From Tubulanus polymorphus (Eukaryota; Animalia; Nemertea), in assembly GCF_964204645.1 (NCBI RefSeq), contig NC_134032.1, positions 5,506,275 through 5,570,274 of the forward strand: 64,000 nt of DNA, written 5' to 3'. How positions within the stretch are numbered: position 1 is the first letter of the stretch; each line of letters opens with the position of its first letter. Both the position numbers and the translations under genes were made by a program. The notes beneath the pieces are model-generated. The model was not told the DNA's origin. It ran no database searches and saw only the letters and a program-made list of their open reading frames with translations. Shown here in pieces: positions 1-63,935 of the stretch.

Positions 1-472
1 TGAATTCTATTATAATGTATTACAACCACTTTTTGGAGAAAAGCATATAGAAATATTATATTTTGATACTGACAGTTACATATTAAGGATAAAAACTGAT
101 AACATAACTGATGATTTAAAAACATTAAAACATCATTTTGATTTTAGTAATTATCCTAAAAATCATGAATTGTTTAGCAATGATAATAAAAAAGTTCCCG
201 GTAAATTCAAAGATGAATTAGGTGGCGAAGAAATGATTGAATTCATTGGTATTAGATCTAAAATGTATTCATATACAACTAAAGAACATGAAGCTAAAAA
301 GTTAAAAGGAATTACCAAAAGTGTAGTAGAAAAGAATATTCATTTCAAAGATTATATCAATTGTATATTCAATGAAGAAGTTAGAAAACATAAGATGAGA
401 TGTTTAAGATCTGAAGATCATGAAATGTTTATTGAAGAAATTGAAAAGATAAGTCTAAACCCATTTGATGAT
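1..472 (+). pseudogene. polB: Protein-primed family B DNA polymerase, C-terminal fragment
   Basis: YFDTDS motif C near 58-75, followed by KKVPGKFKDE...KLKGI, matching 46083-47900. Confidence 0.9.
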
Positions 473-1063
473 GAAAATATTTCAAGTATAATTCAAACTA
501 AATACAATCAAGGATTTTCATTATTATATGATTATATTGATAAATTTAAAACCGTAACTATTAATGCAAATGATGAAATAATTAATGAGAATATTAACTT
601 CCCAAGAAGATCTATTAAAGGTATATTAATATTTTTTACCATTGCAACATATTCTAATGGTGCAATACAGGTTGATAAGTATTATAATCCTGAAATAACA
701 AAAAAAGAAATAACTATCGAAGGAATAGCAAATAAAATATTTTGTCAAGGAATGAGAATGATAGATCAATGGCCAGAAATTAGAAAACATTTTATGAATG
801 AAAAGGTAAAATCATCTGAAAATTGTAACATTAATCAAATTGATTATTATACCGGTAATAAATATGCATTATGGTTAGATTTTAGAACAACAGAGGATAA
901 TTCATTACATGGTTCTGGAAAAAAATTACAAAACACTAAAGATGGAATACAATTATTCATGGCAAAGAAAAAAGGAAGTCTAAATTTCAAAATGCACATT
1001 TATATTATATCTGACGCGCAATTAAATATTGTTAATTCACAATTAGATAGTGTTATGTATTAA
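469..1063 (+). pseudogene. Major capsid protein C-terminal half, fused in frame to the PolB fragment (chimeric ORF 170..1063)
   Basis: DENISSIIQT...QLDSVMY matches the C-half of the MCP at 38856-40103; TGAT microhomology at the junction. Confidence 0.88.
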
Positions 1064-1095
1064 AATTTTAACTTTAATAAAAATTTATTATATAA

Positions 1096-1503
1096 ATGGA
1101 AGGAGGTAAAGTTTATAAACATATTCCATACATCGATACACATGAAAATAATGATGGTTTATATTATGTAATACCTTGTAATATAGCTTTGATATTTGAT
1201 CCTATTTTCAAAATTTATAAAACTAAACTAATAGAAATCGATAATAATAAAAGTGGTGTAGTTGATAATTTAAGTAATGTAATTGATAATAATGTAATAC
1301 CTACTTCATCTAATAATGTAATACCTACTACATCTAATAATGTAATACCTTCTACATCTAATAATGTAATACCTTCTACATCTAATAATGTAATACCTAC
1401 TACATCTAATAATGCAATAATATTAAATGTTAGTGAAAATAGAAATTATTGTGATTATTGTAATGGTGAATTTTCAAACGCTCCATCAAATTGGAGAATA
1501 TAA
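1096..1503 (+). pseudogene. Truncated variable Zn-finger protein (MEGGKVY family) with 8-aa NNVIP(S/T)TS repeats
   Basis: Same N-terminus as 19844-20617, 38017-38823 and 54892-55749; 24-bp tandem repeat at about 1288-1415. Confidence 0.8.
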
Positions 1504-1686
1504 GATTTCTAGTTTTATTTTATAACAAAGATAAAAAATCTATCCAACAATCATTGGAAGAAAATCAAATTATACCTACTGAGTTACATGATGAATATAT
1601 GAATAAATTAAAGAATAATAAAGGTTCAAAATTATTACTGAGATAACAATTTCCCTATGAACTATGAATATAAGTTTATAAAATAA
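1494..1686 (+). pseudogene. Packaging ATPase 3' fragment
   Basis: ENIRFLVLFYNKD...EYKFIK matches 18838-19413; internal stop. Confidence 0.85.
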
Positions 1687-1706
1687 CTATTTATATACCT
1701 ATCCAT

Positions 1707-2060
1707 CTAATACGTATTAAATACGTATTAGATACGTATTAAATACATTAATGCTTAAAACCCCATTTTTAAAATAAAAATTATTCATATAATTTTCAAC
1801 CAATTTATTTTTATTTTTTTCAACTAATATATGAATAAGTTTGAAAATAATAAAGGTTATTTATTATTAATGAGATTTCAATATAAATTTAAAAAAGAAA
1901 TATAATTTAAGGTATTTTCAAATAATATATATTAAATACGTATTGGATACGTATTAGATACGTATTAGATATGTATTAGATACCTTAAATACTTAAAACC
2001 CCCTTTTTTATTTCCTATTATTTTATACAATTTTCATCTAATATTATTATTTGAGTTAAA
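1707..2060. repeat. Inter-arm convergence region: duplicated unit of tandem 11-bp TACGTATTA(G/A)A repeats followed by AAAACCCC-T-tract
   Basis: Two related copies (about 1707-1830 and 1930-2050); homologous to 19430-19800 and 59200-59360. Confidence 0.75.
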
Positions 2061-2073
2061 TATAATTAATATC

Positions 2074-2583
2074 TTAATCACTTTCACTATCATACCCTAA
2101 CAATTTTCTCAAATTCTCTACCGAATCTTCTTCTAATTCTTCATTATTTTTATACTTATTCTTCACCCTTTTTACCGAATCTTCATAAATAATTGGTTTA
2201 TTGATATACTTATTAGTCATCTCAACTATATCTTTATTTTCTGATTTAAGTTTCATAGAATCGTTATTATCAATGCGCTTTCCTGTAACTATATCACCAT
2301 GTGGGTGCCATACGGCGCCATTTTCATTATCATCTTTCTTAGTGTTTGACCTTAATATTGTATTTACAATGCTTGATTCTAGTATTTTTTTAGCAGCAGT
2401 TAAATCTAATTCATCATTACTAGGTTCCTTAGATAAAAATTCACCTAATAAATCTTCATATAAATCTTTACCATCTACTTTTTTATTTGAAACAAACTTT
2501 GTAACATAATTAAATGGGTGTTCTATAAATTCTTTTAAACCAACACGTTCTATAACATTAATAATATGTGAATTTGTATTCAT
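2074..2583 (-). pseudogene. C-terminal part of MEGGKVY-family variable protein
   Basis: Matches the C-half of 19844-20617; 5' part removed by a deletion that joins it to MCP. Confidence 0.8.
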
Positions 2584-2587
2584 ATGA

Positions 2588-3247
2588 TTATTCAGTTACT
2601 GTGTCATATTCTAAACATATATTCGATAATTTATAACTCATATCTTTATTAACGCTAGATATTACAATTTCATTTACAGGAGCAAATGTTATTTCGAATA
2701 TAACGTCTTCTTGAATTGCGTATTTATATAAAGGTGCATTGTTATTTATCAATTCAAAGTCTAATGGAATTTTATATTTGCTTCCATATATACTTTTTAT
2801 CAATTTATCTACAGCATTAGTTAATATTGCGCTATTAGCTTCTGATCTTAATTTATTTTGGTTTTCTGATTGGATGCCTTGAAATATCATATTATTTCTA
2901 TTTTCTTTAGTTAACCATAAATCTTTATAATGCATAAATAAATTATAATCATCTAATGAGAAAACTGTTTCTGGACCAATTTTTATTGTTAATTTTTTAA
3001 TCAAATATCTTCCAACATTATCAACAACATAATTATTATTATTACCGATTACTTTTATATCAGCTGATAAATAAATACTATTTGGAACATAAAAAGTATT
3101 TTGTGTTAATCTACGAATTCTAACATATAAAGTTTCATCAGGATTAATATTAGAAGGGTTATGAGTAATTATATGATGTGATCTTTCTGCTTTAATAGCA
3201 TTAGATATTCTATGATTCTTAGAAGGATTGATATAACTCCCACTCAT
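2588..3247 (-). pseudogene. Major capsid protein, N-terminal half (truncated by deletion)
   Basis: MSGSYINPSKNHRISNAIKAERSHH... matches the N-half of 38856-40103. Confidence 0.88.
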
Positions 3248-3287
3248 TTATTTAACAAAAAAATTAATTATTTATTTTTGATCATGG

Positions 3288-4837
3288 TTACTTGATATTT
3301 TTTGATATCATATTTACTAACCCAAAAATAATAGCACTTACAACTGTAATTAAAAATAAAATAATATGTTCAGCAGCAAAGTTAATAATGTTTCCTGCAG
3401 ATTTCAATATAAAACCAACAATTGATGCAATAACTCCTGGCAATGCCGCAGCAGATTTCTTTGATAGTTCCCATAAATATTTTGCTAATTTCTTTAAACC
3501 ATCCTTAACTTTATCTTGTATAGAATTATTATCTGGAGGTTTATCTGGTTTATTGGGAGTAGGAGTAGATTTCAAAGCATTTGATATTGCTAAACCGATT
3601 GTTGTAAATAACATAGTTACAGCTGTTAGAATTGAAAGAATTGTTATTCCTTCTAATTTAAATAATAATCTTATTCTATCTTTCAATGATATTTCAGAAT
3701 TTGGTTTTATCAACAAATCTTTAAAAATAACTTTTAATCTATTAATATTATAATCATATGATTTTAATAATAATTTAATTTCTTCTTTTTGTAATTCTAT
3801 GTTATATTCTAAATCATCTTTTTCTTTTTCTAAACGTAATTCTTTTTGCCTATATTCCATTTCATCAATTGCTTGACGATCAAGATCAGACTTTATTTTT
3901 TCTATTTCTTTATTTTTATCAGTTAATTCTTTTTCTAAATTGTTAATTTTAATATCTCTTATACTTTTTTCATGCGTAATTTTATCAGCCGATTCTTGCA
4001 TACCTTTAATTTCTCTACGTGTTTGTTCAGGAAATGTTTCTAATTCTTCATCAGTTAATTTAAGAAATCCTTTTTCTAGTAAAGATTGTATTCGATTTAT
4101 TCCAGTTTCAGTACCGGGTGTGTCTAAAGCACTATTCATCTCTTCTTGAAATGAATGAACTGTATCAAACATTTTATCAAAATGTTTTACTACTTGTAAT
4201 TGATTTGAATCATTATCAATTTGTTAAATATCTCTTCTAGATGTTTCTGGTGTTGAAGATCTTAATTTATCTGATCGATCTCTATGATCTTCCATTTCTG
4301 GATCAACATCATTAGGATTTAAATTTGGATTTTTAAATGGTGAATATTTGTTAATATCAATATTCGGATTTGGTTCTTCTTCATTTATTCTATCGATTGC
4401 ATTCCATATAATTCTGATAAATTCTGAACCACATTTTGAATGTTCAATTGTAGATCTTGCTAACATTTTACATTTTCACCATTTAATTCAAGATTATAAT
4501 ACCACACATCATTTTTATATTCTAAATTATTCATGAAAAATGGATCATCTTTTAAAATTTGTTTTACAATTTCTTCTGAACCAATTTCATCTATTACATC
4601 TTTTGGTAATATTTCGTTTACAACTACACCTGTTATTTTAATTTTAATTTCATTTAATTTTTCACGTAATTCGGAATTAATTCCATCATAATCATCATCA
4701 TCTTCACCTAAATTAGTATTATATTCTGTTTTATTATCATTACTAAAACTTGTTTCACTAAAATCAGGTGGTTGTTCATCACTTATACCAGGTTCATCTA
4801 AAGGATCCAATGGAATATCTTCTCCACCTTCTGCCAT
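3288..4837 (-). pseudogene. Acidic N-terminus / coiled-coil / C-terminal TM protein upstream of MCP (fragments 4460-4837, 4224-4466, 3288-4172)
   Basis: Homologous to 40143-41873; hydrophobic C-terminal helices; stops and deletions. Confidence 0.75.
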
Positions 4838-9764: not shown

Positions 9765-9959
9765 AGTAATAGGGGGTTTAGTTGTTTCATATCAAAGGTT
9801 GAGAGGTTGATAAATTTTCCAAATGTTAAAATAATGATAATTTCTACTTGAATTAGGAGTGTACGCGACTAATTCAAGTAGAAATTATTGTTATTTTCAC
9901 ATTTGGAAAGTTTCTCGACCTCTCGACCATTGGTATGAAACAACTAAACCCCTATTACT
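9765..9959. mobile_element. Foldback (fully palindromic) MITE-like element
   Basis: AGTAATAGGGG...CCCCTATTACT ends; ~90-bp imperfect arms around a GAGTGTACGCGA centre. Confidence 0.75.
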
Positions 9960-10490
9960 TGAGTTATATTAGCAGGTTTAATCAGTTCAATCTCCTTATA
10001 CGTATCAGGAGTTAACTCAGCCACCACGGGGCTAGTATAATCAAACACGACTTCATAAGACTGCGATCCATTTGTCATTGCTGTGAAAACAGTTTCTTGT
10101 GAAGGATCATCAGGTCTAGGAGGAGGAGTTTTATCATAATCTCGTCTACTTAAACCGTCGCATTTGCCATTCTTCTTACCCGGTCGGTGTTCAACAGAAA
10201 AATTATATGCTTGAAGAGCCAATTCCCAACGTCCTATACGTTTATTTAGTCGGTTTTCATGAATATACGTTAAACTTTTGCTATCAGTATACACACTGAA
10301 TTCATTTCCAATCAGGTAGGGATGAAAATTCTGAATTCCTTCAATCAAAGCTAATCCTTCCTTATCACTAATATGCCATTTCTTTTCGTTTACACGTAAC
10401 GCGCGACCACCATATCCGATAACATTTTCTAAATTATTCTTTTTCTGAGACAAAACATAACCGATAGCATAGTCCGAAGAGTCAACTGAG
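9960..10490 (-). pseudogene. Ty3/Gypsy LTR retrotransposon pol fragment (RNase H domain)
   Basis: DSSDYAIGYVLSQ...KEGLAL...VYTDSKSL...RWELALQAYNFSVEHRPGKKNGKCDGLSR is a typical Gypsy RNase H. Confidence 0.88.
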
Positions 10491-10550
10491 AGACTCTCTT
10501 TCAATTGCATAGTAGAATTACTTAGTGTTTCCATATTAAATTGGTAACGA

Positions 10551-10670
10551 GGCATATTTTTTTATCACAATCAATTACAAAATCGTAGCTGCTGACATGT
10601 TCTATGATTGTAGTGAGTTTCAAGGTCATTGGTTTTTGTATATGGTCACCAGGGGGCGTTGAATATTAAA
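10551..10670 (+). mobile_element. Fragment of the same HINE family as 35620-37607
   Basis: Reverse-complement similarity to 35795-35910 (GACATGTTCTATGAT...GTGAGTTTCAAG...CACCAGGGGGCGTTGAA). Confidence 0.65.
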
Positions 10671-19427: not shown

Positions 19428-19800
19428 ATGTATTAGATACCCTATTAGATACCCTAATACCTGGTACCCTAATACCTGATACCCTATTAGATACCTTTAA
19501 AACTTAAAACCCCCTTTTTTAAAATAAATATTATTTATGCAATTTTCAACCAATTTATTTTTATTATTTCAACTAATATATGAATAAGTTTGAAAATAAT
19601 AATGGTTATTTATTATTACTGAGGTTTCAACATAAATTTAAAAAAGAAATATAATTTAAGGTATTTTCAAATAATATGTATTAGATATGTATTAGATATG
19701 TATTAGATACCTTAAATACCTTAAATACTTAAAAACGCCTTTTTATTTTCTATTATTTTATACAATTTTCAACTAATATTATTATTTGAATTAAATATAA
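19428..19800. repeat. Inter-arm convergence region with duplicated TATTAGATA(C/T) repeat unit
   Basis: Homologous to 1707-2060. Confidence 0.7.
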
Positions 19801-31237: not shown

Positions 31238-31906
31238 ATGGAACCAGAAGAACCACAAACTATCAATATTACAAATAACACTGGTGTTATAAATATATAT
31301 TACAAGAAGTGTTCTAAATGTGAATTAGATAAATTAGCTTTAACAGAATTTAGTAAGCGTAAGATTAGCAAAGATGGTTTTCAATATTGCTGTAAAACTT
31401 GTTTTAAACTATATACCAAACAATACCGAGAAGATAATATAGAACATTATAATTATTATATGGCAGAATATATGAGAGAAAGATATCAAACAGATCTTAA
31501 TTTTAGATTGAAACAATGCTTAAGATCTAGATTAACACAATTATTCAACAAAGAAACACATTCAGAATCATTATCTAATTTGTTGGGTTGTTCAGATGAA
31601 TTTCTCAAATCATGGATTATATTTCAATTCGATGATAAAATGATTTTAGATAATTATGGGGATTATTACCATATTGATCACGTGTTACCAATATCTAAAT
31701 TTAACATGAATGATGAATACAATAAAAAACTTATTTGGAATTGGAAGAATTTAAGACCTTTAGAAAAGAAAGAAAATCAAATCAAATCTAATGAACTAGA
31801 TTTACAGTTATATTTAGAACAGTTAACAAAGGCAAAGAAATTTATTGATCAATGGAACAATAATCAAAATAATGAACAATATGTTGAGTCTTTAATGAGT
31901 GGTTAA
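31238..31906 (+). CDS. HNH-type endonuclease with N-terminal CxxC...CxxC zinc ribbon
   Basis: KKCSKC...CCKTC, then YHIDHVLP...NWKNLRPL...EN..K, an HNH pattern seen in large DNA viruses. Confidence 0.8.
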   Translation: MEPEEPQTINITNNTGVINIYYKKCSKCELDKLALTEFSKRKISKDGFQYCCKTCFKLYTKQYREDNIEHYNYYMAEYMRERYQTDLNFRLKQCLRSRLTQLFNKETHSESLSNLLGCSDEFLKSWIIFQFDDKMILDNYGDYYHIDHVLPISKFNMNDEYNKKLIWNWKNLRPLEKKENQIKSNELDLQLYLEQLTKAKKFIDQWNNNQNNEQYVESLMSG

Positions 31907-52592: not shown

Positions 52593-52870
52593 ATTCAACA
52601 GGTTTGTTAATCTATTACATATTTAGTTACATTCTAATTGCATTCTACTTATTGGTATTTGAAACAAAAATCAAATAAAATTCAACAATATTTTAACTAG
52701 CTTGTTAATCTAGTATATTTGTAGTTACATTCTAGTTGAATTCTAGTTATTGGTTGTTGGAACAAAAATCAACTAGATTTAACAAGAAATAAATAAAAAC
52801 AACAATATTTCAACTAGCTTGTTAATCTAGTTGAATTCTAGTTACATTCTAGTTAAATTCTAGTTGCAAC
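52593..52870. repeat. Intergenic array of CTAGTT/GAATTC-core short palindromic repeats
   Basis: Recurrent CTTGTTAATCTAG, GTTACATTCTAG and CTAGTTGAATTCTAG units; related sequence at 31940-31970 and 58800-58850. Confidence 0.65.
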
Positions 52871-52897
52871 ATTACAACTAATTTTTTTGTTATATAA

Positions 52898-57028: not shown

Positions 57029-58762
57029 TTATTTATTTTTTATCATGTTTACTAACCCAAAAATAATTGCACTTACAACTGTAATTAAAAATAAAATAAT
57101 ATGTTCAGCAGCAAAGTTAATAATGTCTCCTGCAGATTTCAATATAAAACCAACAATTGATGCAATAACTCCGGGCAATGCTGCAGCAGATTTTTTAGAT
57201 AGTTCCCATAAATATTTTGCTAATTTCTTTAAACCATCCTTAACTTTATCTTGTATAGAATTATTATCTGGGGGTTTATCTGGTTTATTGGGAGTAGGAG
57301 TAGATTTTAAAGCATTTGATATAGCTAAACCAATTGTTGTAAATACCATAGTTACAGCTGTTAGAATTGAAAGAATTGTTATTCCTTCTAATTTAAATAA
57401 TAATTTTATTCTATCTTTCAATGATATTTCAGAATTTGGTTTTATCAACAAATCTTTAAAAATAACTTTTAATTTTTTAATATGATTAAGATCATATGAT
57501 TTTAATGATATATCTCTTTCTTTTTCCTGTAATTCTTTGTTATATTTTAAATCATCTATTTGTTTTTCTAAAGCTAACTTTCTGCTTTCATAATCAGCTT
57601 CCTCTATTACTTGAAGATTTTTATTTAATTCTAATTGTTTTAATTCTTCATTTGCATTAGCTAATTCTTTTTCTAAAATGGTTAATTTAGAAAATCTCAT
57701 CTTAATATTAGCAATTTCACCGGCTGATTCTTGCATACCTTTAATTTCTCTACGTGCTTGTTCAGGAAATGCTTCTAATTCATCATCAGTTAAATCAAGT
57801 AATCCTTTTTCTAGTAAAGATTGTATTCGATTTATTCCAGTACTATTCATCTCTTCTTCTGAATCTCTTAATCTATCAATTTGTTTTTCTAATACTAATT
57901 GTAATTGACTTGAATCATTATCAATTTGTTGAATATCTCTTCTCGATGTTTCGGGTGTTGAAAATCTTAATTTATCTAATCGATCTCCATCCTCTTCCAT
58001 TTCTGGTTCTAAATTATCATAGATTTTGTCAAATAACTCATTAATTCTTAGTTTGAATTCTTTTCTATTTATTTCTTCTTGTGTTACATCTTCTAGTTCA
58101 TTACTATTACTTATTCTTTTAATTCTAAATGTTTCAAATTTTCTCAAAGTTGATTCTGCTAATATTATATTTTGATTTTTATAAGTGATATTAATATAAT
58201 AATCATCTTTCAAATGATAATAATATTCACCATCTAAATATATTAATTCTTGTGCTAAAAGTCTGGCGCCTTTATCATTTATATTATATCCAGAATCTTT
58301 AAATACAGGTTTGAATTTATATATAAATTCATTTTTTTCTAAATCTTGTCTTGATAAACCTGGATTTTCATTTTCAGGTTTTATTCTCGATCTAGTTTTT
58401 CTAATATATTCCTCTGTTGACGGGGCTTTATGACCACTATCTGCTAAATTAGAATTATATGCTGATTCATCATCATTATCAATATTAGTATCAGCAGACA
58501 CATAATCATCATCGTTAGTATTGGCATCATCATTATTTCCTCTGTTTTCCATTTCATAATCTTCTCCACCTTCAAAATAATCCTCACCTAAAATATCATT
58601 ACTCATATTTCTAATATGGCTTTTAGATTTTAAATGTTCATTATAATATCTTTTATCACTGAATGATTGATTACATGTATCACATTTATATGTTTCTTTT
58701 TCATTCTTTAATTCATCTAATTTAGTTTCTAGTATATCATCTTTATATTCTAGTTTCAACAA
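57029..58762 (-). CDS. Chimeric ORF: PolB N-terminal Zn finger fused in frame to a variant acidic/coiled-coil/TM protein
   Basis: KLEYKDD...ILGEDYF (PolB) joined to EGGEDY... at about 58572; C-half matches 40143-41873. Confidence 0.75.
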   Translation of the reverse strand: MLKLEYKDDILETKLDELKNEKETYKCDTCNQSFSDKRYYNEHLKSKSHIRNMSNDILGEDYFEGGEDYEMENRGNNDDANTNDDDYVSADTNIDNDDESAYNSNLADSGHKAPSTEEYIRKTRSRIKPENENPGLSRQDLEKNEFIYKFKPVFKDSGYNINDKGARLLAQELIYLDGEYYYHLKDDYYINITYKNQNIILAESTLRKFETFRIKRISNSNELEDVTQEEINRKEFKLRINELFDKIYDNLEPEMEEDGDRLDKLRFSTPETSRRDIQQIDNDSSQLQLVLEKQIDRLRDSEEEMNSTGINRIQSLLEKGLLDLTDDELEAFPEQARREIKGMQESAGEIANIKMRFSKLTILEKELANANEELKQLELNKNLQVIEEADYESRKLALEKQIDDLKYNKELQEKERDISLKSYDLNHIKKLKVIFKDLLIKPNSEISLKDRIKLLFKLEGITILSILTAVTMVFTTIGLAISNALKSTPTPNKPDKPPDNNSIQDKVKDGLKKLAKYLWELSKKSAAALPGVIASIVGFILKSAGDIINFAAEHIILFLITVVSAIIFGLVNMIKNK

Positions 58763-59061
58763 TGAAATAATACAAGAGTGATACTAACAGTTAAAGTTAT
58801 TGAATTTCTTGTTAAATCTATTTGAATTCTAGTCAATTCTTGTTAACCAATAGCGCGAATAGAAATCAAATAGATTTGAATAAAAAAACAATAATTTAAA
58901 TAAGTTAGTATTAGATAAAGTAACTTATTGTTTTTTTATTCAAATCTATTTGATTTCTATTCGCGCTATTGGTTAACAAGAATTGACTAGAATTCAAATA
59001 GATTTTACAAGAAATTCAATAACTTTAACTGTTAGTATCACTCTTGTATTATTTCATTGTT
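58758..59061. repeat. Long hairpin: 137-bp inverted arms (one mismatch) with a 30-bp loop
   Basis: 58758-58894 is the reverse complement of 58925-59061. Confidence 0.92.
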
Positions 59062-59199
59062 TCTCTTATTGAATAAGCCAACTAACTAATATCACTCTTG
59101 TATTATCCTAGTCAAATGTAAAGAATTTACAATATCATACTTGAATGAATTAAAACATAAATTACTTCTGTTACTTCATTTTCAGAAATAAAGCATAAT

Positions 59200-59360
59200 A
59201 TGTATTTAATACCATTAATACGTATTTAATACCATTAATACGTATTTGATACGTATTTAATACATGGTATTAGGGTACATTGATACCTCAACCCCCCTTT
59301 TTATTAACTTTTATTTTCATACATTTCCACTAATATATTTTATATTTTCAGCTAATTTAA
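59200..59360. repeat. Divergent copy of the convergence-region unit (TAATACGTATT repeats plus AACCCCCC-T-tract)
   Basis: Similar to 1707-1830. Confidence 0.65.
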
Positions 59361-59371
59361 CAGTCGATTTC

Positions 59372-59673
59372 TTATTTTGAATCATATAATTTTTCATCAA
59401 GTTCATGAATATATTTATGAGTTTTTAAACTCTTTAAATTTTTATATCTTTTATTACATATTTCACAGCATTTAATATTATTCAATCTATCTGAAATATA
59501 ATTCATATTTTCTATTAATTCAGTGTATCTAATTTTACAGCAATCATAGAATTCTAACAACTGTTTTATAGTATAAACTGAGAATGACAATTACCTGTAA
59601 GCATAATAATTGATTTAATATTCTGTTGATTTTTATATATTAGATGTAATAAGTTTAATATATTTTCACTCAT
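59372..59673 (-). pseudogene. Small C2H2 zinc-finger protein (probable frameshift; ORF 59372-59590)
   Basis: CEICNKRYKNLKSLKTHKYIH; TAAATG start context at 59673. Confidence 0.55.
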
Positions 59674-59693
59674 TTATTTATTTAATTAATTCA

Positions 59694-59891
59694 CTAATCT
59701 GATTCAATAACTTTTTTATGATTATTTTTATTTCCATTTAATTTTTTCAATTTCTTGCTCAATTTCAGATTTTCATTCATCGAATCCTTACTTATATTCT
59801 CATAGTATAAATAAAGCGCAGCCAATATAAATCCTCCTGCTACAAGATAATGTTTCAAATCACTTTTCCCAGTTGGGATGAAACCATCCAT
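59694..59891 (-). CDS. Small single-TM basic protein (65 aa)
   Basis: YLVAGGFILAALYLYY TM segment; TAAATG start context. Confidence 0.55.
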   Translation of the reverse strand: MDGFIPTGKSDLKHYLVAGGFILAALYLYYENISKDSMNENLKLSKKLKKLNGNKNNHKKVIESD

Positions 59892-59948
59892 TTACTTAAG
59901 AAAGAAATTAAACAGTTTATAAAATATTAAATATTTATATGTTTCAAT

Positions 59949-61751
59949 TCAAATAACAATTAAACTTACTACTAATTCTTTATGCCGCTGAGAATTATAT
60001 TTTTGCTTGTGCGTAATCAATTTTATCACCTGATATTCTGTTATATTATTCTTGATCATTTCGTTATCGAAAAATTCATTTGATATGTAAATATTTTCAT
60101 CATTATGAATTAAAATTAGATGGCGCAATTTATTTCTAAAATATCTACGATTAATGAAATCAATATTATATTCAGAATTATCTTTCAATAGTTCTAAACG
60201 CTCGCATTGCTTAATTTTCATATTGTTAAGTTTCATTTTTCTTAAATAATCAGATTCTTTACGTATATCACATACATTTATGAAATCATTAGAATTTATC
60301 TTTAAATATTCAGTATATTTTTTCATCAATTCAAAATCCATTTTATCAATTATTTCAAAATGATCTTGTGTTATCTTCTTTACTTGGAAAATAGGTTTTT
60401 CTAATTTTGATAAAATAAAGTGTCTATCAGGGCTATGAACGCCTATTTTTAACTTTTTGATGATTTTTTCTATCGAAGACAATTCAAAATAATTATTATT
60501 TAATACGTCTAATTGTAATGTTTTTATCAATAATTCTCTTAAATCAGTAGTAGTTTCATAAAAGCCTTGATCTGTTAAAATATAACTGAAATAAAGATCT
60601 GTTATACATTTACATTGAGTTGAAAAACCTCTAATTTCAAAAATTGTATTATTGTCAATTCCAGATATTTTAGGAGTATAATCATTTAATTTTACTTCAG
60701 GAATTATTTCAAGTTTTTTAAATTCTGTCTCAAATAATTCATTATCAATATCTAATTGTTGCTTTAATTCATTACAAATTTTATTTCTATTTTCATCTAT
60801 ATCTTCTTCTAATTGTTTAAGTTCTTTCATTTCTTCTAACTTTTTAAATTCACTTTTAGACAATAATTTTAAATCAAAATCTTCTTCAACATCAAATGCA
60901 TCTAATTTATAAACAGGTTTAGATTTTATATTGTATCTCTTTTTTAAAGTTGTAAAACTAATTCCTGTTTCACGTAATTTAAATCTAAATATAAATTTAT
61001 TCAATACTGTAAACATTGAATTAGTTGAAGATATAACAGTTGCTCCTTCAGTTTTAATATATTTTTTTGCTTCAATAATGAATTCTGATTTATCATCATT
61101 TTGATCAATTGTTAGGTATAAACATGGGATATTCTTAATTGTAAACATTGATAAAATAAGTAAAAAGGAGGACTCTTCAATATTTTTATTTATCCTAGAT
61201 TTATATCCTATAAATTTCCTTGCTAATAAATCACCATAATAACAGAAATAAAAGCATTTTTCAATCAAATCATAAATACATACAGTCTGTTGAACCTCAT
61301 CAAATAATGATTTAAGTTGTAAATATGTAGGTGAATAGTAAATATTTTCTTTTTTTAAGTATTGTTTTATTTTTTCCATCACTTTTAATCCTCTTTTAAA
61401 TGAAATACCTGTTATTTCAATTCTAATCAATCCTGTTTCAATTGATTTTTCAAATGATTCTTTTAGCCTCTCTTGATAGCAATTTATGTAACTCATTAAA
61501 TTTGAACCGAAATTTATATTTACACCAGGAGATTTGAATTGACATGCTGTTTTATTATAGATCTTTATTTTATCATCCTTATGTAATGCTGAAACACAAC
61601 TATTGGAAAATTCTTTTAGAACTTTATATTTTATATTTTCGAACATTGATTTTATTTCATCTGAATTAAATGATCCTTTAAAATCTTGTGTTACATCTAC
61701 ATCTAATATATTGTAATTTTTTTCATTTAATAATTTTTCAATATTATCCAT
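59949..61751 (-). CDS. 600-aa protein with putative Rep_trans / phage gpII-like nicking domain at the N-terminus
   Basis: Intact ORF; D19xxxD23, KIY65NK and GLIR110IE112I occur in the order of the Rep_trans active-site motifs (function is inference). Confidence 0.55.
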   Translation of the reverse strand: MDNIEKLLNEKNYNILDVDVTQDFKGSFNSDEIKSMFENIKYKVLKEFSNSCVSALHKDDKIKIYNKTACQFKSPGVNINFGSNLMSYINCYQERLKESFEKSIETGLIRIEITGISFKRGLKVMEKIKQYLKKENIYYSPTYLQLKSLFDEVQQTVCIYDLIEKCFYFCYYGDLLARKFIGYKSRINKNIEESSFLLILSMFTIKNIPCLYLTIDQNDDKSEFIIEAKKYIKTEGATVISSTNSMFTVLNKFIFRFKLRETGISFTTLKKRYNIKSKPVYKLDAFDVEEDFDLKLLSKSEFKKLEEMKELKQLEEDIDENRNKICNELKQQLDIDNELFETEFKKLEIIPEVKLNDYTPKISGIDNNTIFEIRGFSTQCKCITDLYFSYILTDQGFYETTTDLRELLIKTLQLDVLNNNYFELSSIEKIIKKLKIGVHSPDRHFILSKLEKPIFQVKKITQDHFEIIDKMDFELMKKYTEYLKINSNDFINVCDIRKESDYLRKMKLNNMKIKQCERLELLKDNSEYNIDFINRRYFRNKLRHLILIHNDENIYISNEFFDNEMIKNNITEYQVIKLITHKQKYNSQRHKELVVSLIVI

Positions 61752-61760
61752 TTTCTGTAT

Positions 61761-62042
61761 TTATTCATTTAAATTTTGATTGCATAATGAAATTTTAAAT
61801 ACAGCAATATAATCTGTTAATTTTAATTCTTGATTAATTCTACTTAATATATATGATTTTGAATTATCATCATGAATTGTTAAAACACGTGTAATTTTTA
61901 TAGCTAAGTTATCCAATATAATATCTCCTTGATTAAAACATTCTTTAATTTCATAATGTGTTATCTTTCTCTGATTAACGTTTAGAAAAGTTTTTCTATT
62001 TTCTTTAATAATTTCTTTTTCTAACATGATTTTATATAGCAT
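61761..62042 (-). CDS. Hypothetical protein (93 aa); may be the detached N-terminus of the 600-aa protein
   Basis: Ends 9 bp before the 600-aa ATG, same strand. Confidence 0.4.
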   Translation of the reverse strand: MLYKIMLEKEIIKENRKTFLNVNQRKITHYEIKECFNQGDIILDNLAIKITRVLTIHDDNSKSYILSRINQELKLTDYIAVFKISLCNQNLNE

Positions 62043-62568
62043 TATATTATCGCAAAATATATCTGATGTTTCAATTAATTCATTATTTTCAGATTTATAA
62101 CTTATTTATATTTACTCCTGAAATATCTGCTAAATTATTGTTAACAGTTAAATAATATAATATTGAATTTATATATTTATTACTCATGTCTTTCGCGGGA
62201 ACTTTAATTAATCTTGTGCACATTTATATATCAAATTTTTATTAAAATAGGTTAAAATTCAAAAAGAGTTAGAGTTCGCTGAAACCTTACGCTTTAAAAT
62301 ATTTTTTTACCCTTATTGGTAATATAATTGATTAATCCTTTTCAACTGAAATAGCACGTTCGATCAATATTCAAATGAGGTGCGCCCTATTCAACTGAAT
62401 ATGAAATACGGCACAGATGTTTTTTGTAAACAACCTAATACAATTACATACAGGCGGTTTGACATAGATCGAGAGAAACCGGTTCTCTAAGCGTTTAACA
62501 TTCAACGTATTTTTCATTATGTGTTGAGTTCCATAATTCAACAAATGTCTTTGCTTTATCCAGTTGAT

Positions 62569-63935
62569 CTAAATATAATGTAAATCTAGTTTATTAGATT
62601 TAATTATGTTTTCCTTCTTTTCAAGAGGTCTTAAATTCTTCCAGCACCAGATTAGCTTCTTATTATAATCATCACTCATGTCAAATTTAGAAATCGGCTC
62701 AATATGAAAATCGTGATCAATATGAAAGTATTCACCATAATTATCTATATTCATTTTATCGTCGAATTGATATATTATCCATGATTTGAGAAATTCATCT
62801 GAACAACCCAATAAATTAGATAGTGTTTCTGAATGTGTTTCTTTGTTGAATAATTGTGTTAATCTAGACCGTAAGCATTGTTTCAATCTAAAATTAAGAT
62901 CTGTTTGATATCTTTCTCTCATATATTCTGCCATATAATAATTATAATGTTCTATATTATCTTCTCGGTATTGTTTGGTATATAGTTTAAAGGCCGAGGA
63001 GTATGGATGCTAGTTAACCGGGTGGCAAACACTTGAGATCGGCCGTCCCACTTTTACAGTATCTTGTTTATAATGTTTAGAGTGAGCGAGGTTGGCTCAC
63101 CACAGAAAAGCAGGTCACACACAGTTAAATTTGACAAATTCATAAAAGTTTTCATATCAAGTTCTAAACTAATTTTAGATAATCTAGTCATAGTGGGAAT
63201 GAAAATCTGATGCTAGCGATCTTTTTTGTAGAGATAGGGCCAAGATTAAAGATTTTAGAGACATTTCAAATTTTTTGAAAATCATTAATTTTTATCCGAT
63301 TTCGATGAAATTTGGACACAACATTGATGGTAGATAGCTAAACAAGTGTACGAAATTTCAGACTGATCCATTGACCATAGAAAAAGATTTGATGTTGCCA
63401 AATTTTGGTACTATGAATGAGGCTAATGACTATAGGTATCAAATTACTGTTACTGTGCTCTGTGAGCTATACTAATTCACTGGATAACTCCTCCCTCTAT
63501 GTCATTCAAAGATTCAAATTTTGAAGGAAATACCAACTAAAAAGCTTAATTTCTCGTAGAGGAGGGCCTAAAACACATTTTTGACTGCAGAAATGAATAT
63601 ATTACACATTAATACATATGTCTGACAAAAAGGAGGGTCAAAATCGGATAACTGACAGAGAAAATAGGAGATTTCTAGTTTCAACCGTTGGAGCTCTCCA
63701 CTGCACTATTGCTTCATGGGTACTGCCATCTTTGACATTGATTGGGCTTTTATACTGCTCCTCGGCCTTTAAAACAAGTTTTACAACAATATTGAAAACC
63801 ATCTTTGCTAATCTTACGCTTACTAAATTCTGTTAATGATTTATCTAATTCACATTTAGAACACTTCTTGTAGTATATGTTTATAACACCAGTGTTATTT
63901 GTAATATTGATAATTTGTGGTTGTTCTGGTTCCAT
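62569..63935 (-). pseudogene. HNH endonuclease, second copy, split by a Kolobok-type insertion
   Basis: MEPEQPQ...CCKTCFK and LYTKQ...HIDH...KNLRPLEKKEN match 31238-31906. Confidence 0.85.
62991..63768. mobile_element. 778-bp non-autonomous DNA transposon, Kolobok-type
   Basis: TTAA TSD (62987-62990 and 63769-63772); AGGCCGAGGAG...CTCCTCGGCCT TIRs with RR...YY termini; removal restores the HNH frame. Confidence 0.85.

Follow-up and report, generated by a model that had tools for sequence, protein, structure and literature searches.

A 600-amino acid open reading frame (59949-61751, minus strand) in the 64,000-nucleotide stretch of Tubulanus polymorphus DNA analysed here (the window) is best read as the bigger fragment of a damaged copy of a gene that occurs in several copies. 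The predicted product of this gene is a tyrosine nickase resembling the Rep_trans proteins and inovirus gpII, and the gene likely mobilises the segment 58760-62319 among Polintons. We assign this reading a probability of about 55%. Predicted fold and residue order, taken together, make a Rep_trans-like nickase very probable. The widest extension is tentative, at somewhat less than even odds: that a widespread class of eukaryotic rolling-circle elements dispenses with HUH enzymes and uses a Rep_trans/gpII nickase, represented in this genome by a satellite that would make a nick at its own origin and commandeer the strand-displacing polymerase of the Polintons.

The preliminary description of this DNA, made from its letters alone, had presented the ORF as unique and uninterrupted, with the motifs ILDVDVTQDF, KIKIYNK and GLIRIEIT. 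An ORF check finds the frame and the three motifs exactly where they had been placed: motif I (DxDxTxD) holds D19 (codon 61695-61697) and D23, motif III (KxYNK) holds Y65 (codon 61557-61559), and motif IV (RxE) holds R110 and E112 (codons 61416-61424). The two adjectives do not survive. The window contains no second copy of the ORF; same-species reads carry several, both near-identical and diverged, and it is the occurrence of near-identical and 85-90% diverged contigs side by side that makes the gene multicopy. The ORF, moreover, makes up the 3' portion of a ~745-codon gene that is cut by an in-frame stop (61761-61763) and by a frameshift near 62100. Its three closest homologues (37-52% identity) and an intact 716-amino acid cluster-mate possess an N-terminal extension of ~145-170 residues that corresponds to a 93-amino acid ORF and to the frames above it, and a family profile constructed without the window sequence matches the frame upstream of the 600-amino acid ORF with E 6e-18. 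The upstream in-frame part of the gene, including the 93-amino acid ORF, spans 61752-62105 (minus strand) by this match and by alignment, and carries a conserved Asp in an FxD(N) context (codon 62049-62051) as well as a conserved Lys (codon 61794-61796). The first ~30 codons lie in another frame (62100-62187, minus strand, from the homologue alignment); alignment to the intact homologue P0007 puts the start codon, likely, at 62187.

At the stop codon, 40 of 43 raw reads of X5 (a public run from the same species) differ from the window, as do all covering contigs of two other same-species runs; at the frameshift, 30 of 41 X5 reads are of a different length. Because most reads are unlike the window at both places, the breaks belong to this copy and are not sites of recoding: stop-codon readthrough and programmed frameshifting were considered and are ruled out on this ground. 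The upstream FxD Asp is likely, on prediction, to be the third metal ligand of the enzyme. Since it lies outside the ORF, residues 1-130 of this fragment, which had been named for structure checks, are not by themselves the domain. In the layout of the P0007 model, the remainder of the ORF has an alpha/beta domain in the middle together with a long helix, and ends with two C-terminal domains rich in beta structure. The loose resemblance of the C-terminal segments to a 117-amino acid protein, also noted previously, is marginal (12.2 bits, with one of 1000 shuffles scoring higher, at 12.6). An OB fold is not established for these domains, the structure search with the full model having been filled by the N-terminal domain; the Atlas yields a lead of 0.81 to a phi29-type SSB for them, and nothing comes of comparing profiles with four gene V-like proteins of inoviruses. 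Two longer homologues, P0005 and P0099 (1050-1090 amino acids), bear extra C-terminal domains weakly like the 117-amino acid Polinton protein; the C-terminal end of P0005 is a C2H2 finger, which recalls the finger ORF located downstream of the window gene.

Reads and contigs suggest that the gene lies in a multicopy unit of ~3.6 kb (58760-62319). The candidate fixed end, on the 5' side of the gene, occupies 62300-62319 and ends in ATTGG on the plus strand. High-copy sequence begins at 62319, and 141 X5 reads begin to match at this position with other sequence ahead. Three different sequences follow the 62319 end: the window's own flank, a Polinton gene at 58658 (the joint 62320 to 58658 is found in four X1 contigs and four X5 reads), and the flank of an X4 contig, which departs from the window there via a related 20-nt stretch; this last is a single contig, in which 6 of the 10 bases that come next are still those of the window. 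For the 58658 joint, a second insertion is one possible explanation; the other is a circle or tandem, joined head to tail, that extends ~100 nt beyond the hairpin. The related end of the X4 contig differs from window 62300-62319 at seven positions, each of them C against T; deamination, of DNA that was single-stranded or methylated, might account for this. At the other side of the unit stands a palindrome of 304 nt (58758-59061; 141-nt arms, 99% complementary, 22-nt spacer, z -34), a candidate for the far end or for an origin or terminator. It is built of repeat words that are also found at 52717-52856, in a Polinton intergenic region, and the hairpin is much shorter in one diverged X1 contig (joint 58793 to 59037). 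The junctions at 58572 and 58759 have 599 and 645 X5 reads, respectively. No target-site rule emerged from the observed junctions. A second backward joint, 62095 to 59162, is present in one X1 record and may mark a tandem of shortened copies.

Read depth in X5 varies across the region. It is 18-51 for the gene, 59-72 for the palindrome with the repeats, 71 at 62141-62262, 133-199 for the small-gene block at 59335-59944 and 540-820 for the flanking Polinton pieces. The gene lies far below the flanking Polinton genes, and the depth at both putative ends (59-72) is above that of the interior. The preliminary description had left the choice among a Polinton variant, a satellite and a rolling-circle element; the different flanks at one end, together with a read depth unlike that of the flanking Polinton genes, give a separate mobile unit or satellite better support than a plain replacement of a Polinton gene. 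Over 61043-61408, X5 first mates fall far more often on the plus than on the minus strand (e.g., 21.6 vs 2.3), perhaps because reads were filtered or because a deletion is common; 60810-61252 is missing from one X2 contig.

Directly downstream of the nickase gene lies a decayed small gene with a hydrophobic segment (59600-59892, minus strand, from its translation), which is part of the higher-copy block. It is followed by a 72-amino acid C2H2 zinc-finger ORF (59372-59590, minus strand; PF13912, E 4e-4, under the curated cut-off) and by short direct and inverted TAATACGTAT-type repeats (59195-59336) like those of Polinton intergenic regions at 1705-2044 and 19670-19779. Adjoining the palindrome, with junction reads at both of its limits, is a fragment of the zinc-finger gene that lies upstream of the polymerase gene in Polintons (58572-58759, minus strand); it belongs either to the flank or, as a captured piece, to the unit. 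On the opposite side the high-copy flank is the 3' part of a Polinton gene (62494-62991, minus strand, 85% matching to 31403-31895) that we take, following the preliminary description, to be HNH-like; it has no Pfam match. The location assigned there to the nickase gene, between an HNH gene fragment and Polinton-type repeats, is thereby borne out. The window as a whole is a rearranged cluster of decayed Polintons, with pPolB (PF03175), integrase (PF00665) and long internal duplications, and 58760-62319 is devoid of a polymerase, integrase or capsid gene. Since Polinton genes are absent inside the unit and present around it, in a cluster so rearranged, the unit may itself be a piece of something larger. 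Its non-coding repeats and base composition are Polinton-like (GC 0.22 and GC3 0.15 for the gene, vs 0.24-0.25 and 0.12-0.16 for Polinton genes).

Several neighbouring features deserve separate mention. A 577-amino acid ORF (57029-58762) is a chimera in which a zinc-finger piece, derived from the polymerase-upstream gene, is fused in frame at 58572 to a coiled-coil gene. The HNH-like gene is split by a separate insertion of ~780 bp (62990-63770), which hundreds of reads skip. Tandem, partly palindromic repeats at 52600-52880, which separate a Polinton ATPase fragment from the gene that follows, have words in common with the 304-nt palindrome and may be origin-like. An ORF at 9944-10555, within the Polinton cluster, resembles the part of an LTR retrotransposon that encodes RNase H.

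The protein belongs to an unnamed family, of which a full HMMER search (E ≤ 0.001) recovers 91 clusters; 43 of the 90 new ones contain at least 600 residues. An alignment of 63 sequences combines 59 of the 91 clusters with the window ORF and its three close homologues (the 32 clusters omitted are mostly short fragments). Overall identity across the aligned family is ~20%. Set in this background, the five residues on which the preliminary description had placed its emphasis (D19, D23, Y65, R110 and E112) are conserved in 59-63 of 60-63 aligned sequences: motif I retains D19 in 59/60, T21 in 58/60 and D23 in 60/60; motif III retains K63 in 62/63 and both Y65 and K67 in 63/63; motif IV retains R110 in 61/63 and E112 in 60/62. 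The upstream part is comparably constrained, with the FxD Asp in 55/56 and the Lys in 55/58. The first-motif Arg, whose replacement by Asp had been remarked for the window protein, is replaced family-wide (D in 47 of 60, S in 7, E in 5); Arg never appears there among the residues listed for the 60 aligned sequences. The motif-I Ala position is Thr, the strand equivalent to motif II reads VGxxCL(T/S), with no conserved Gly at the expected place, and the family alignment has no conserved His pair of the HUH kind.

Among 20 clusters looked up, one bears an organism name, the others being environmental or sequencing-run proteins, and the window protein groups with three environmental sequences in a quick-mode tree that served only for choosing subfamilies. 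Five of the 23 matches to one subfamily are named: three come from Planococcus citri, one from Cacopsylla melanoneura and one from Cinara cedri. The environmental and sequencing-run homologues lie mostly on contigs of 1.6-18 kb. Three homologue copies lie on one insect chromosome: the locus numbers of P0012, P0018 and P0121 of Planococcus citri, on an 84-Mb contig, are close to one another, which suggests a local cluster. No relative was found in viral contigs (five profile scans and one with a close homologue), in metagenome contigs scanned twice, or by tblastn against phages (with two homologues) and against plasmids, in scans that depend on short patterns and so do not imply absence.

The sequence-level connection of this family to Rep_trans and gpII has several strands. 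The Pfam match to Rep_trans (PF02486) or Phage_CRI that had been proposed as a check is not there: Pfam has no match for the 600-amino acid ORF, and 0 of 45 homologues match either family. No NCBIfam family is matched by more than one of 56 members, and the family profile finds nothing better than E 0.37 among PDB sequences. One of the 56 members, P0047, does match phrog_702 (E 1.6e-6), the family to which M13 gpII belongs (E 3.5e-84), and Atlas leads of 0.89-0.90 point to clusters with Phage_CRI (18% and 37%) and Rep_trans (32%) members. Profile-profile comparison brings the motifs into register at scores that are not significant: against five RepC-like proteins, with YNK and RxE aligned to their RepC counterparts, the probability is 0.9-4% and the score 24.7 (best control, 24.3); against five gpII proteins the score of 17.5 is below 8 of 40 controls, and an alignment of 119 columns with Ff gpII matches up the three motifs at a score no better than controls. 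In the same comparison gpII and RepC, which are known relatives, score only 20.4 against each other.

In the accessible text on RepDE, its site consists of Y191 and three ligands of the metal, D46, D142 and E214, with R140, D146, R189, K193 and R212 also conserved (PMC4797284); the order in the family follows D46, D142, D146, R189, Y191, K193, R212 and E214 (numbering checked on RepC). Five Rep_trans motifs are listed, and the catalytic Tyr located on a strand, in the part of another account available to us (PMC5714925). Four of these positions are matched in order by the family; the motif-I Arg is replaced and motif II differs. The protein is not assigned to PF02486, because the profile and motif-I tests failed; it is predicted that it likely works as a member of PF02486 does. 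The earlier call of a Rep_trans/gpII-like enzyme withstands both tests that had been set to refute it, on conserved residues and on predicted fold.

The model of the intact homologue P0007 has a pLDDT of 88; the window domain, modelled with X at the stop, reaches pLDDT 92 and pTM 0.89. In the latter the acidic residues and Y65 lie on beta strands, the upstream FxD Asp on the first of them, and K67 lies just beyond a strand end. A strand location for the Tyr fits Rep_trans and does not fit HUH. Compared with 48,161 chains, the model produces its longest listed alignments with RepDE (Z 6.8, rmsd 6.5, 171 residues) and RepSTK1 (Z 6.5, rmsd 5.7, 169 residues), both of which align over the whole domain; if the alignment is ungapped, the FxD Asp is in register with D9 of RepSTK1 at the start of the aligned range. 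No match to a Rep in this set reaches Z 8. TBP scores above both Reps (Z 7.3-7.5) over a shorter alignment of ~150 residues, and the top score, Z 8.1, is an 82-residue half-domain match to an unrelated phosphoglucomutase. Foldseek with the intact homologue finds RepDE in the PDB with probabilities of 0.90 (4cwc) and 0.96 (4cwe), no PDB match having E ≤ 0.001, and inovirus G2P with E 6e-4. The domain is therefore predicted, at middling Z, to have the TBP-like crescent fold of Rep_trans proteins, in agreement with the preliminary proposal; the fold alone is middling evidence for a nickase of this type.

That the domain is instead a TBP-fold DNA-binding or other DNA-processing protein, its motifs resembling those of Reps by convergence on a common sheet, is very improbable. 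The higher Z of TBP (7.3-7.7), the insignificance of the profile-profile tests and the high rank of viral TBP-like and early transcription factor proteins in a viral structure library speak for it; they are outweighed, in our judgment, by the near-invariance of D, D, D, Y, K, R and E in the Rep order despite ~20% overall identity, by the greater part of the domain over which the Reps align, and by the P0047-phrog_702 match, which provides a bridge to gpII at the level of sequence. A further alternative accepts the enzyme and alters its setting: the gene might come from a small extrachromosomal rolling-circle replicon of eukaryotes, plasmid or virus, that was integrated by accident and multiplied passively with the Polinton cluster. 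Most homologues do lie on short contigs (1.6-9 kb), a circle might account for the 62320-to-58658 joint, and the known Rep_trans proteins are described, in the accessible text of PMC5714925, as replication initiators or relaxases and not as transposases. However, repeats in short-read assemblies also give short contigs, the homologue contig that was examined is not circular and has no capsid gene, and three copies sit on one insect chromosome; we regard such an origin as improbable.

More weight, although still on the unlikely side, falls on the possibility that the nickase gene resides in a variant Polinton, as a module for replication or integration that was swapped in and has no mobility apart from that of the Polinton as a whole. 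The gene has the orientation of the HNH fragment; downstream of it come the small-gene block with its high copy number, repeats of Polinton type and a palindrome of Polinton intergenic words, and its GC and GC3 match those of Polinton genes. Exchange of replication modules, including circovirus Rep-like nickases, is frequent in this group of viruses according to a preprint (10.64898/2026.10.13.758929), in whose main text neither 'TBP' nor 'rolling' occurs. Against a resident gene stand the joining of the 62319 end to other sequences in other copies, the failure of all six scans to find a relative in viral contigs, and the one homologue contig examined, which carries the gene without Polinton genes.

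For the preferred reading, a unit mobilised by its own nickase among Polintons, a mechanism can be sketched. The upstream FxD Asp, D19 and E112 would hold a divalent metal in the TBP-like crescent, and Y65 is predicted to attack one DNA strand, joining its 5' end and freeing a 3'-OH. If the chemistry of Rep_trans is a guide, the nick at the fixed end would start strand-displacement copying that ends at or past the hairpin, and the enzyme would then join the released strand into a circle or to a new site. The two ends might also act the other way round, since the origin of an archaeal relative, Rep-Arvir, is reported to be a hairpin downstream of its gene (PMC13107129). Neither a helicase nor a polymerase family is detected in the gene; lacking a detected helicase family, the enzyme would need a partner, and a helicase or polymerase would have to be borrowed. 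The protein-primed polymerase of the neighbouring Polintons is the obvious candidate, suggested by common repeats and by nesting; on that speculative footing the unit would be a Polinton satellite.

The family shares with Rep_trans (PF02486; RepC/RepD of the pT181 family, RepSTK1, and the MOBT relaxases of ICEBs1 and Tn916) the predicted TBP-like crescent, a predicted D...D...E metal triad, a strand Tyr in K/RxYNK, the RxE motif and the order of these. It differs in lacking a Pfam match, in having D, S or E for the motif-I Arg and another motif II, in ~24 extra residues between motifs III and IV, and in its size (700-1200 amino acids, with extra C-terminal domains) and its named carriers, which are insects. 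With inovirus gpII/Phage_CRI (PF05144, phrog_702) it is connected by the P0047 and G2P matches; unlike that phage protein's gene, the window gene has no filamentous-phage genes near it. Rep-Arvir (DUF7845) is likewise a Rep_trans-related family recognisable mainly by structure, and has a hairpin downstream of the gene; it is archaeal, with a KHYYM motif and a winged-helix domain (in the accessible text of PMC13107129), and DUF7845 is matched by 0 of 45 homologues. With Polintons/Mavericks the unit has its neighbourhood, non-coding repeats and base composition in common; it differs in being a 3.6-kb unit without polymerase, integrase or capsid gene and of ~tenfold lower read depth. The proposed lifestyle resembles that of Helitrons and Replitrons in the use of a tyrosine for nicking, in one fixed end with a hairpin close to the opposite one, and in a possible head-to-tail junction, which are Helitron traits as far as partly abstract-level sources describe them. 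Those elements use HUH enzymes, by the same sources, whereas the family has an unrelated, TBP-like fold (predicted) and no helicase family, and none of 45 homologues matches an HUH family.

HUH initiators are distributed over each of life's three domains and Rep_trans is apparently confined to bacteria, the fold having been extended to archaea in 2026, according to the text available of PMC13107129; a taxonomy commentary of the same year mentions TBP-fold initiators, in its available part, for bacterial and archaeal elements only (PMC13595969). The literature searched, main texts to the exclusion of most subscription journals and Repbase, contains no description of a eukaryotic Rep_trans element. 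If the reading is true, a family in insect chromosomes and in this genome brings TBP-fold initiators to eukaryotes, the one domain not yet represented, supplies a second, unrelated chemistry for eukaryotic rolling-circle mobility beside that of Helitrons and Replitrons, and points to a class of repeats that bears no Pfam label. The enzyme would be of a known kind in a variant form; it is the class of element that is possibly new. The existence of naturally intact homologues, XP_065207965.1 among them, makes the central claim directly testable in vitro.

A bacterial home for the family was considered and rejected. Prokaryotic genomes scanned with one subfamily contain one match among 86 candidates, on a 3575-bp MAG contig (L003), and a wider profile finds none in 300 other genomes of the same bacterial class; the contig is likely eukaryotic and misbinned. 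Over its length (1-3575) it has one ORF of 1040 amino acids and, near the contig end, a telomere-like run of TTTTGGG. A 17-26-nt repeat is dispersed over it in 10-12 copies, in both orientations and even within the ORF; these could be binding sites.
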